Part shown: positions 25,801 through 26,996 of the stretch, in pieces
Layout: the number at the start of each line of letters is the position of its first letter
How positions within the stretch are numbered: the first letter of the stretch is position 1
From: Deltaproteobacteria bacterium
GTDB taxonomy: Bacteria > Myxococcota_A > UBA796 > SXON01
Length of the DNA stretch: 26,996 nt
Reading direction: 5' to 3'
NCBI GenBank assembly: GCA_947486185.1
Contig: CANKTH010000066.1
Span: 1 to 26,996 of the forward strand
The notes under the pieces: generated by a model
What the model saw: the letters and a program-made list of their open reading frames with translations, nothing else
The model's database searches: none
Told to the model about the DNA's origin: nothing
Program-made: the position numbers and the translations under genes

Positions 25801-26397
25801 ATGGCAAACAACGGCGACAACTCGATGGTCTCTCGGCTGGCCTCCCGGGCCGAGACTCCCTTGAAGCGGAAATCGGTGTCGGGCGGCGGCGAAGTGTTCA
25901 CCGGCCCCCTCGCCTCCCGCGCGTTGAAGAGCCTCGGCGCCCGCGCCATGACTGTGGACCGCAGCGTGATCGTCGCGGAGGGCTTCGACGAGAGCCGCGC
26001 CGAAGATCAGGCCTTGTACGCCCACGAACAGCATCACGTGGCCAACTCCGGCGGCACTGACGAGCACGGCACCCGCGACGCCGAAGAGGTCGCCGCTCGG
26101 GCGGTCGAACGGATGGTGCTCCACCGCCACGCGGCCGGCGGCATCGAGTCCCACGAAGCGGGCCACGCTACCGGCTCCGGGGCCTTCGGCGGTTCGGTCA
26201 ACAAGAGCCGCGCGGCGGGGAGCGACGTGCCGGGTGAGGGCCAGCCCAACGCGTCGCGTGGTTACGAGCGCCTCAAGGCGGAGGGCCTCAATCATATCGA
26301 CATCGTCGAGAAGATTGCCAGGGAGGTCGTGAAGGGGATGGACGAGGCGCGCGACTCGCGGAACGACCGCTTCGCCGACAAGAAAGGCTTCTTGTAA
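25801..26397 (+). CDS. DUF4157 domain protein (HExxH putative zinc-metallopeptidase-like; eCIS/toxin-associated family)
   Basis: ASRALKSLGARAMTVDRSVIVAEGFDESRAEDQALYAHEQHHVANSGG matches the DUF4157 core (…ArAFTvG..IvF..G…LLAHELtHV…) including the HExxH motif. GGAGGG precedes the ATG at 25801. 198 aa. Confidence 0.75.
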   Translation: MANNGDNSMVSRLASRAETPLKRKSVSGGGEVFTGPLASRALKSLGARAMTVDRSVIVAEGFDESRAEDQALYAHEQHHVANSGGTDEHGTRDAEEVAARAVERMVLHRHAAGGIESHEAGHATGSGAFGGSVNKSRAAGSDVPGEGQPNASRGYERLKAEGLNHIDIVEKIAREVVKGMDEARDSRNDRFADKKGFL

Positions 26398-26483
26398 GCT
26401 GAGATCATCCCGCCGATCCCGGCGAACCGGGTCCCGGCAATCTCTACGGACAGCCTCACGCAGGCGCAGACGCGAGGAGCAGC

Positions 26484-26996
26484 TTGGCGAGCGTATTTGA
26501 TGACTTGACCCGTCGTTTACGGCGGACCGACCTCCTGTTGCTCCGAGCCGTACGCCGCCAACGCGCCCGCCCCGCAATGCGCGCGAAAGGGCAGTTCTGG
26601 GGCTCGGTGATCACCGACGACGAGGTGGACGCGCTGCTCCGCGCGGCCGGCGAGATCGACTACGTCACGGGCCCTGACGGCCTGGAGGACGCGATCGCCG
26701 CCTCGGTCGCGCTGCGCGACGGCGCGGGCGGGCGCTTCAGCCGGTTGAGGCAAGCTTTTGACCTCGACGGGGACGACGCCGACCTCATCCTCCTCTCCCT
26801 CGCCCCGGAAATCTCCGCCGGCTACGGCAAGATCTTCGCCTACCTCAACGACAATCTCAACCAGGCCTACCTCACGGTCGACATGGCCACGCGCGTGCTG
26901 CGCACTGAGCGGCGCGAGCGGCTCGCCTTGCAGTCGCGGCTCATGCCCGGCGGCCCGCTCATCCGGTACCGGCTGCTCCTGCTCAACCCGCCCGAC
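26484..26996 (+). CDS. N-terminal region of a putative AAA+ ATPase of the type that accompanies DUF4157 genes and eCIS loci (3' end outside window)
   Basis: The frame is open from 26403 to the window end. AGGAG at 26475-26479, then TTG at 26484; the alternative ATG is at 26577. Translation is ...DLTRRLRRTDLLLLRAVRRQRAR...GSVITDDEVDALL...DLDGDDADLILLSLAPEISAGYGKIFAYLNDNLNQAYLTVDMATRVL... By recollection this resembles the conserved N-domain preceding the Walker A region of eCIS-type ATPases. The ATPase core itself is not in the window. Confidence 0.45.
   Translation, partial: MASVFDDLTRRLRRTDLLLLRAVRRQRARPAMRAKGQFWGSVITDDEVDALLRAAGEIDYVTGPDGLEDAIAASVALRDGAGGRFSRLRQAFDLDGDDADLILLSLAPEISAGYGKIFAYLNDNLNQAYLTVDMATRVLRTERRERLALQSRLMPGGPLIRYRLLLLNPPD

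Follow-up and report, generated by a model that had tools for sequence, protein, structure and literature searches.

The window considered here, by which we mean the whole analysed stretch of 26,996 nt (66% GC), ends with two genes on the forward strand. The first encodes a small stand-alone protein of the DUF4157 family, and the second is the 5′ part of a gene for an AAA+ ATPase of the type that accompanies extracellular contractile injection systems (eCIS). Upstream of them, in divergent orientation, lies hutF (Table 1). The window is the final part of the ENA metagenome contig ERZ27280196 k141_2859529 (52,232 nt), and its edge is the true end of that contig. We will show that both genes belong to known families, and that what is somewhat unusual is the split layout of the locus.

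Table 1. Positions of the two genes, their spacers and selected neighbours in the window.
Feature	Position	Strand	Remarks
Stand-alone DUF4157/eCIS_core gene	25801..26397	+	ATG to TAA, 198 aa
Spacer between DUF4157 and ATPase genes	26398..26483	.	86 bp; Shine-Dalgarno-like GAGGAG at 26474-26479, 4 nt before TTG 26484
5′ part of Afp15/Pvc15/Alg15-type AAA+ ATPase gene	26484..26996	+	171 of ~696 codons, N-terminal winged-helix-variant domain, cut by the contig end
Divergent intergenic spacer hutF/DUF4157	25766..25800	.	35 bp; GGAGG at 25792-25796, 4 nt before the DUF4157 ATG
hutF (formimidoylglutamate deiminase)	24437..25765	-	442 aa; TIGR02022 equivalog, 435.6 bits (cutoff 413.05); PF01979 also matches
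aspS	22617..24380	-	unambiguous
FAD subunit gene	2318-3178	-	look-up anchor

The first of the two proteins matches the profile PF13699 (eCIS_core, formerly DUF4157) over residues 31-84, with an E-value of 2.5e-9 and a score of 37.6 bits, to be compared with a gathering score of 22. Its motif H75-E76-Q-H-H79 is intact (nt 26023-26037), and when 43 homologues with lengths of about 200 aa are aligned, H75, E76 and H79 are found to be invariant, as are E95 and E96 on the following helix. An earlier note on this DNA, made from the letters alone, had taken the 198-aa frame for a DUF4157 protein with an intact HEQHH motif and had proposed a PF13699 search of positions 25801-26397 as a check; the significant match bears this out. 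In NCBIfam, no model was found for this protein or for the ATPase, and the weak matches to IteA and CDC48 lie far under the cutoffs.

The AlphaFold2 model built from the 43-homologue alignment has a predicted local distance difference test score above 90 for a compact α/β core (residues 20-111) and also for a C-terminal helical hairpin (151-197). The protein can be divided into a zincin-like core at about residues 10-111, a disordered linker rich in Gly, Ser and Ala at ~112-148, and the hairpin. Structure comparison of the model shows that the predicted fold matches zincin metallopeptidases, albeit weakly. The best matches of the core are the protease domain of ArdC, the C-terminal effector domain of VgrG2b, and the minigluzincins proabylysin and selecase, with all of which it shares the HExxH helix and, after it, a helix with conserved Glu residues. 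In DUF4157, unlike in these zincins, peptidase activity is putative. Judging from the model, the 198-aa protein is a DUF4157 module of minimal size, zincin-like and ending in a short helical tail. What follows the core is only the linker and a hairpin of 45 residues, and the protein is in this respect different from the DUF4157 domains borne by toxins, as it has no C-terminal domain of toxin size. The PF13699 score above threshold, the invariant HExxH, the predicted zincin-like fold and the position next to an eCIS ATPase gene are, on the other hand, features that it shares with known DUF4157/eCIS_core proteins. The domain has been described as a core domain of eCIS that is present in 13 phyla, where it often forms the N-terminus of toxins or is encoded by a gene next to theirs (PMC8213781).

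The GC content at third codon positions (GC3) is 0.88-0.89 for the DUF4157 and ATPase frames, as compared to 0.81-0.86 for the neighbouring genes. An open reading frame (ORF) of 411 aa on the opposite strand (25342-26577) was also considered. Because both forward frames show the GC3 bias of real genes, this ORF can be ruled out as a spurious product of the high GC content.

We now come to the second gene, whose frame runs from TTG 26484 up to the last base of the window with no stop codon. The fragment matches PF22977 (WHD, 'Winged helix domain, variant') with an E-value of 4.5e-20 and 72.7 bits (cutoff 27). For the assignment of this gene, and for most of what follows, we made use of a set of 80 related loci that were obtained by scanning one genome per species, nearly all of them metagenome-assembled genomes labelled Myxococcota or Deltaproteobacteria. 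Across these loci the fragment is 74-89% identical. The gene is complete in 74 of the 80, and where ORFs were called its product has 696-700 aa.

The orthologue in the related locus L007 is 89% identical to the fragment and has 696 aa; its N-terminus matches PF22977, and residues 478-602 match PF00004 (AAA). A translated search of plasmids led to the afp15 gene of Serratia entomophila pADAP, and Afp15 is of the same length and contains the same pair of domains (E 6.6e-20 for PF22977). Residues 8-679 of the L007 orthologue align with residues 22-693 of Afp15, i.e. nearly end to end, at 30% identity (E 2e-77). The alignment takes in a degenerate D1 as well as the Walker A (GPGTGKT) and Walker B (FDEAD) motifs of a catalytic D2. 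Since the fragment matches PF22977 and its 89%-identical orthologue is homologous to Afp15 over the full length, we assign the second gene, at the level of sequence comparison, as encoding the N-terminal domain of an Afp15/Pvc15-type ATPase. This had been suggested in the earlier note, and the peptide strings quoted there are indeed present in the ORF. The degenerate D1 and the catalytic D2 of this copy would, to go by the orthologues, follow beyond the contig end. Searches of PDB sequences gave no match for the N-terminal domain, and with the full-length orthologue they returned only generic matches to the D2 of p97/Cdc48.

Two starts, TTG 26484 and ATG 26577, had been left open for this gene. 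Residues 1-31, which precede the ATG, are conserved in the relatives (RRLRRTDLLLLRAVRRQRARP), and the GAGGAG sequence stands 4 nt upstream of the TTG. The comparison thus supports the TTG as the start and speaks against the ATG. The public ENA gene call begins at the ATG (140 aa) and is too short by the 31 conserved residues.

The characterised members of this ATPase family give an idea of what the protein may do. In the AlgoCIS system of Algoriphagus, deletion of Alg15 or mutation of its Walker B motif results in particles that look normal but lack cargo, and purified particles are free of Alg15 (bioRxiv 10.64898/2026.05.27.728243). Pvc15 of Photorhabdus consists of an N-terminal domain, D1 and D2. 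Loading requires each of the three, and ATP is hydrolysed by D2 only (PMC11495950). By analogy, the ATPase considered here would load cargo into a contractile particle, with the characterised homologues suggesting a hexamer that acts as an unfoldase, and it would not be part of the finished particle.

It can be mentioned that PF22977 also occurs in the absence of an AAA domain. Stand-alone proteins of 233 aa, 59-62% identical to the window fragment, are encoded at L004:3117-3818 and L005:10001-10702, where the neighbours of their genes are a TPR gene and an ORF of 546 aa that matches nothing in Pfam. The possibility that the 546-aa ORF in L004 is a split-off AAA part was considered and rejected. 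Tandem WHD-WHD proteins of 490-523 aa and one BTAD-WHD-AAA fusion of 1077 aa were also found (among P0028-P0031, P0182-P0184 and P0221).

The surroundings of the two genes in the relatives are informative. The layout there is an eCIS operon on the minus strand, followed by a 233-aa gene (+), an M20 peptidase gene (+), hutF (-), the DUF4157 gene (+) and the ATPase gene (+). In the order of transcription, the operon comprises a 143-aa gene, a Pvc16_N-like cap gene, sheath 1, tube 1, a 120-aa gene, sheath 2 and tube 2. The loci were searched with tblastn, using as probes the sheath, tube and Pvc16_N proteins and neighbouring proteins of locus L006, as assigned by Pfam, and eCIS genes were counted as nearby when within 10 kb. 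The cap gene, two sheath genes and two gp19-type tube genes are located within 10 kb upstream in 39 of the 80 loci. Downstream of the ATPase gene, where 61 loci are informative in having at least 3 kb of sequence, structural genes were found in one case only (L067). The comparison of the sequences thus shows that, in the ancestral arrangement, the structural operon adjoins the hutF end of the hutF/DUF4157/ATPase block.

The ATPases of the relatives resemble those of the Afp15/Pvc15/Alg15 loci in that, for about half of them, sheath, tube and cap genes are found no more than 10 kb away. The arrangement is, however, a different one. In Afp and PVC, the ATPase gene is placed inside the operon, between the tape-measure and cap (DUF4255/afp16) genes, whereas in the present clade it stands outside and divergent from the operon, separated from it by hutF and in most loci also by the M20 and 233-aa genes. 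In the clade, moreover, a small DUF4157 gene precedes the ATPase gene, unlike in Afp and PVC. The window differs further from those systems in that the structural operon is not adjacent and just the N-terminal domain of the ATPase is present.

The aspS and hutF genes next to the pair, and the spacer of 35 bp, had been described correctly in the earlier note, which listed hutF simply among the core genes beside the pair. This last point has to be revised. In 40 of the relatives' loci hutF and the DUF4157 gene are transcribed away from each other at close quarters, their starts being a projected 17-118 bp apart (35 bp here), and on this basis we consider hutF to be a member of a conserved hutF/DUF4157/ATPase block of the Myxococcota clade rather than an incidental neighbour. 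In the relatives hutF adjoins the M20 peptidase gene, and in the window hutH, hutU, hutI and hutG are not present. No sigma-70-like promoter or terminator was found in a search of positions 25500-26996, and no Rfam families, tRNAs or meaningful repeats were detected in or around the DUF4157-ATPase region.

In the contig at hand, the side of the block where the relatives have their operon is occupied differently. The 34.7 kb upstream of the DUF4157 gene hold only housekeeping genes; the relatives' eCIS segment is missing, as are their M20 and 233-aa genes. A Pfam search of contig positions 17554-52232 gave housekeeping genes only, and tblastn with the relatives' sheath, tube and cap proteins gave no match in the window. 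Since the operon side beyond hutF is taken up in this way, the DUF4157-ATPase pair is most likely uncoupled from its structural operon, which may sit elsewhere in the genome or have been lost. Similar uncoupled layouts are seen in L030, L039, L037 and L012, and in the first two of these an NAD synthase gene and an FAD oxidase gene are found upstream.

Our interpretation is accordingly that the last 1.2 kb of the window carry two genes for cytoplasmic eCIS accessory proteins, one for a stand-alone DUF4157 protein and one for the N-terminal domain of an Afp15/Pvc15/Alg15-family ATPase, which are uncoupled from the structural genes and would act in trans if a particle exists. We put the probability of this interpretation at roughly 0.75. 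A number of points weigh against it. The sequence ends inside the ATPase gene, and an eCIS may therefore lie nearby downstream or elsewhere. Just 171 codons of the ATPase are in hand, which means that its AAA+ core and its intactness in this genome are taken from the orthologues. The tblastn probes consisted of sheath, tube and cap proteins and two small proteins, with baseplate, spike and tape-measure proteins not among them, and the operon of the relatives is seen only up to the second tube gene, so that its completeness beyond this gene is outside the view; the 428-aa gene that follows tube 2 in L027 has no Pfam match, and the baseplate part of the operon was not reached. Finally, there is no experimentally shown function for a stand-alone DUF4157 protein in any system.

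The first alternative to be weighed is that the window just reaches the 5′ border of a complete eCIS locus, with the sheath, tube, baseplate, spike and tape-measure genes following directly downstream of the ATPase gene. The earlier note had offered two options, namely such a boundary or an orphan module of DUF4157 and ATPase genes. That the downstream sequence is unseen, because the contig ends inside the ATPase gene, leaves room for the former. With the ancestral place of the operon taken by housekeeping genes, an operon, if there is any, must also be located elsewhere, and in the relative L067 it does lie downstream of the ATPase gene. However, L067 is the sole such case in the 61 loci, and its ATPase gene alone is inverted with respect to the DUF4157 gene, which is not the situation here. 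In 30-43 relatives, among them L007-L011, which have the most similar ATPase N-terminal domain, and L041 and L043, the ATPase gene is instead followed by a shared convergent block. We consequently regard the edge of a complete locus as unlikely. The orphan module is favoured, in view of the structural genes being upstream beyond hutF in 39 of 80 loci and downstream in 1 of 61, and of the 34.7 kb of housekeeping genes upstream in this contig.

An example of the convergent downstream block is L007:12151-20513 (-), with genes for three signal-peptide proteins (402, 492 and 667 aa), a Ser/Thr kinase that is Pro-rich in one region and has a transmembrane segment, and a protein of 359 aa. No Pfam match was obtained for the 402-, 492- and 667-aa neighbours, nor for the 233-aa and 143-aa genes beside the operon. 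These products look like secreted or envelope proteins and not like eCIS parts.

Several loci deviate from the common layout. In L067:10001-12700 and L057:1-10701, only the ATPase gene has its orientation reversed with respect to the DUF4157 gene and the block downstream, so that it converges with the former. Elsewhere, the conserved gene order is interrupted by insertions of 5.6-7.5 kb, which lie between the M20 gene and hutF in L031 and L034, and between the DUF4157 and ATPase genes in L072:4380-10097. As these insertions split the block at different points, they suggest that its neighbourhood is prone to rearrangement.

The rates of change of the individual genes were compared using L007 as the reference and the 20 loci that hold all genes. 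The median identities are 87.5% for the 120-aa operon protein, 80% for the N-terminal domain of the ATPase, 77% for its D2, 73% for sheath 1, 58% for the D1 of the ATPase, 56% for both the Pvc16_N cap and hutF, 53% for the M20 peptidase, and 41% for the DUF4157 protein. With 41% against 71% for the ATPase, the DUF4157 gene is the fastest-evolving one of the block. These values indicate that the ATPase is under strong constraint at the sequence level, while the fast change of the DUF4157 protein is as expected for a cargo-related factor. The base composition of the block is native, and we therefore consider the hutF/DUF4157/ATPase block to be old and vertically inherited in this uncultured Myxococcota clade, and not a recent island. 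The 120-aa protein, encoded between tube 1 and sheath 2 (L007:2146-2511 (-), with equivalents in 33 loci), is the most conserved one of the region; no Pfam profile matches it above threshold, and its C-terminus only weakly resembles a zinc ribbon.

These comparisons bear on a second alternative, in which the pair is a relic, the particle being lost and the DUF4157 and ATPase genes being decaying leftovers, or the ATPase being already truncated. The lack of structural genes in the 34.7 kb upstream would fit such a scenario. That the operon can break is seen in L086, where only the cap and one sheath gene remain before an unrelated 1263-aa ORF. Furthermore, 16 loci were scored as having the ATPase gene but no DUF4157 or eCIS gene within 10 kb, a number that becomes 15 when L057, with its inverted ATPase gene and contig end, is subtracted. 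Against decay, both frames are intact as far as the sequence goes and have the native codon bias described above, and the HExxH site is preserved. In addition, the N-terminal domain of the ATPase is 85-89% identical to that of relatives whose hutF is only ~60% identical, which argues for strong purifying selection and not for decay. A relic is for these reasons improbable. As to L086 itself (L086:359-7231), its operon is apparently truncated: the cap-like and first sheath genes are followed by the 1263-aa ORF, which is lipoprotein-like, and a DEAD-box helicase gene, where the tube genes and the second sheath gene would be expected. L086 does retain the DUF4157 and ATPase genes.

A third alternative is that the pair works independently of any contractile particle, for instance as a split unfoldase and zinc-peptidase in protein quality control or in the processing of secreted proteins, its genes being no more than descendants of eCIS accessory genes. 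The N-terminal domain and D2 of the ATPase are, as seen from the medians, more conserved than the sheath, the cap and the metabolic neighbours (53-56%), the ATPase gene occurs with no adjacent eCIS genes in at least 20 loci, and the WHD-only and WHD-WHD proteins lacking AAA indicate that the N-terminal domain has other uses. However, the ATPase gene is near an eCIS operon in about half of the relatives, its product is homologous to Afp15 over the full length, and DUF4157 is highly specific to eCIS loci, with an odds ratio of 2614 (PMC8213781). The genomes with a lone ATPase gene may also carry particle genes elsewhere. Taken together, this leaves the particle-independent function as the least probable of the explanations.

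A somewhat different idea is that the ATPase and the DUF4157 zincin constitute a self-contained module, with hutF constantly at its side and kept by strong purifying selection, that persists after the operon has been separated or lost. The persistence is suggested by its occurrence in this window, in the four uncoupled relatives named above and in the 15 loci having the ATPase only. Such a module might have an eCIS-independent role as a split unfoldase-metallopeptidase, and not just a part in cargo loading in trans, but we judge the idea as a whole to be a long shot, on a par with the relic.

Returning to the preferred interpretation, i.e. two accessory genes uncoupled from the structural operon, the DUF4157 protein could have one of several functions. 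By analogy with known systems, it may be a small cargo itself, or a chaperone or processing peptidase that acts on cargo in trans. The first of these options is weakened by the fact that the protein, unlike Cgo1 and Cgo2, does not possess a long disordered N-terminal loading sequence, which also counts against the overall picture. DUF4157 is dispensable for the loading of Cgo1 and Cgo2 in AlgoCIS. A role as a chaperone in trans has been proposed for the domain (PMC11297309), and the growth inhibition by Cgo1 is reported, in Xu et al. 2022 as cited there, to be independent of the metalloprotease motif. Provided that the present genome has kept a particle, its genes would be at another site, and the pair would serve it in trans.

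As the contig breaks off within the ATPase gene, neither the AAA+ core nor the downstream flank is accessible here. An exact-protein look-up yielded four contigs that carry the identical DUF4157 protein, none of which reaches further than 513 nt into the ATPase gene; the two Logan contigs among them end before or shortly into it. We considered whether the contigs break because the 5′ end of the ATPase gene is a conserved repeat shared between species, but this is unsupported, as the nucleotide identity to the nearest relatives is only 82-85%, and the two Logan contigs are simply short. When metagenomes were scanned for close relatives of the DUF4157 protein, a single distant locus with 44% identity was recovered.

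The remaining genes of the window are rpoN, hpf, a short-chain dehydrogenase gene, a xanthine-dehydrogenase-like trio, ndk, sucCD, gltA (citrate synthase), sdhCAB and metK, followed by genes for a PAS protein and a band-7 protein, aspS and hutF. A look-up anchored on the FAD subunit gene gave the 7.7 kb upstream of the window, with lptAB, pyrG, kdsB, rpsI, rplM and two further genes. The 3′ end of the hpf-like (Ribosomal_S30AE) gene bears a 27-nt tandem repeat of 3.3 copies with 70% matches (1284-1373).

The results add an uncultured and mostly aquatic Myxococcota lineage to the carriers of eCIS accessory genes. Its locus layout is unlike that of Afp and PVC, as the loading ATPase and the stand-alone DUF4157 protein are encoded outside the operon, behind metabolic genes, and in several genomes fully separate from it. 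Operon-based eCIS and toxin finders that score the distance to core genes would miss or mis-score such layouts. The conserved minimal pairing of a DUF4157 gene with an ATPase gene also constitutes a simple system for testing whether DUF4157 functions as cargo, chaperone or processing peptidase.

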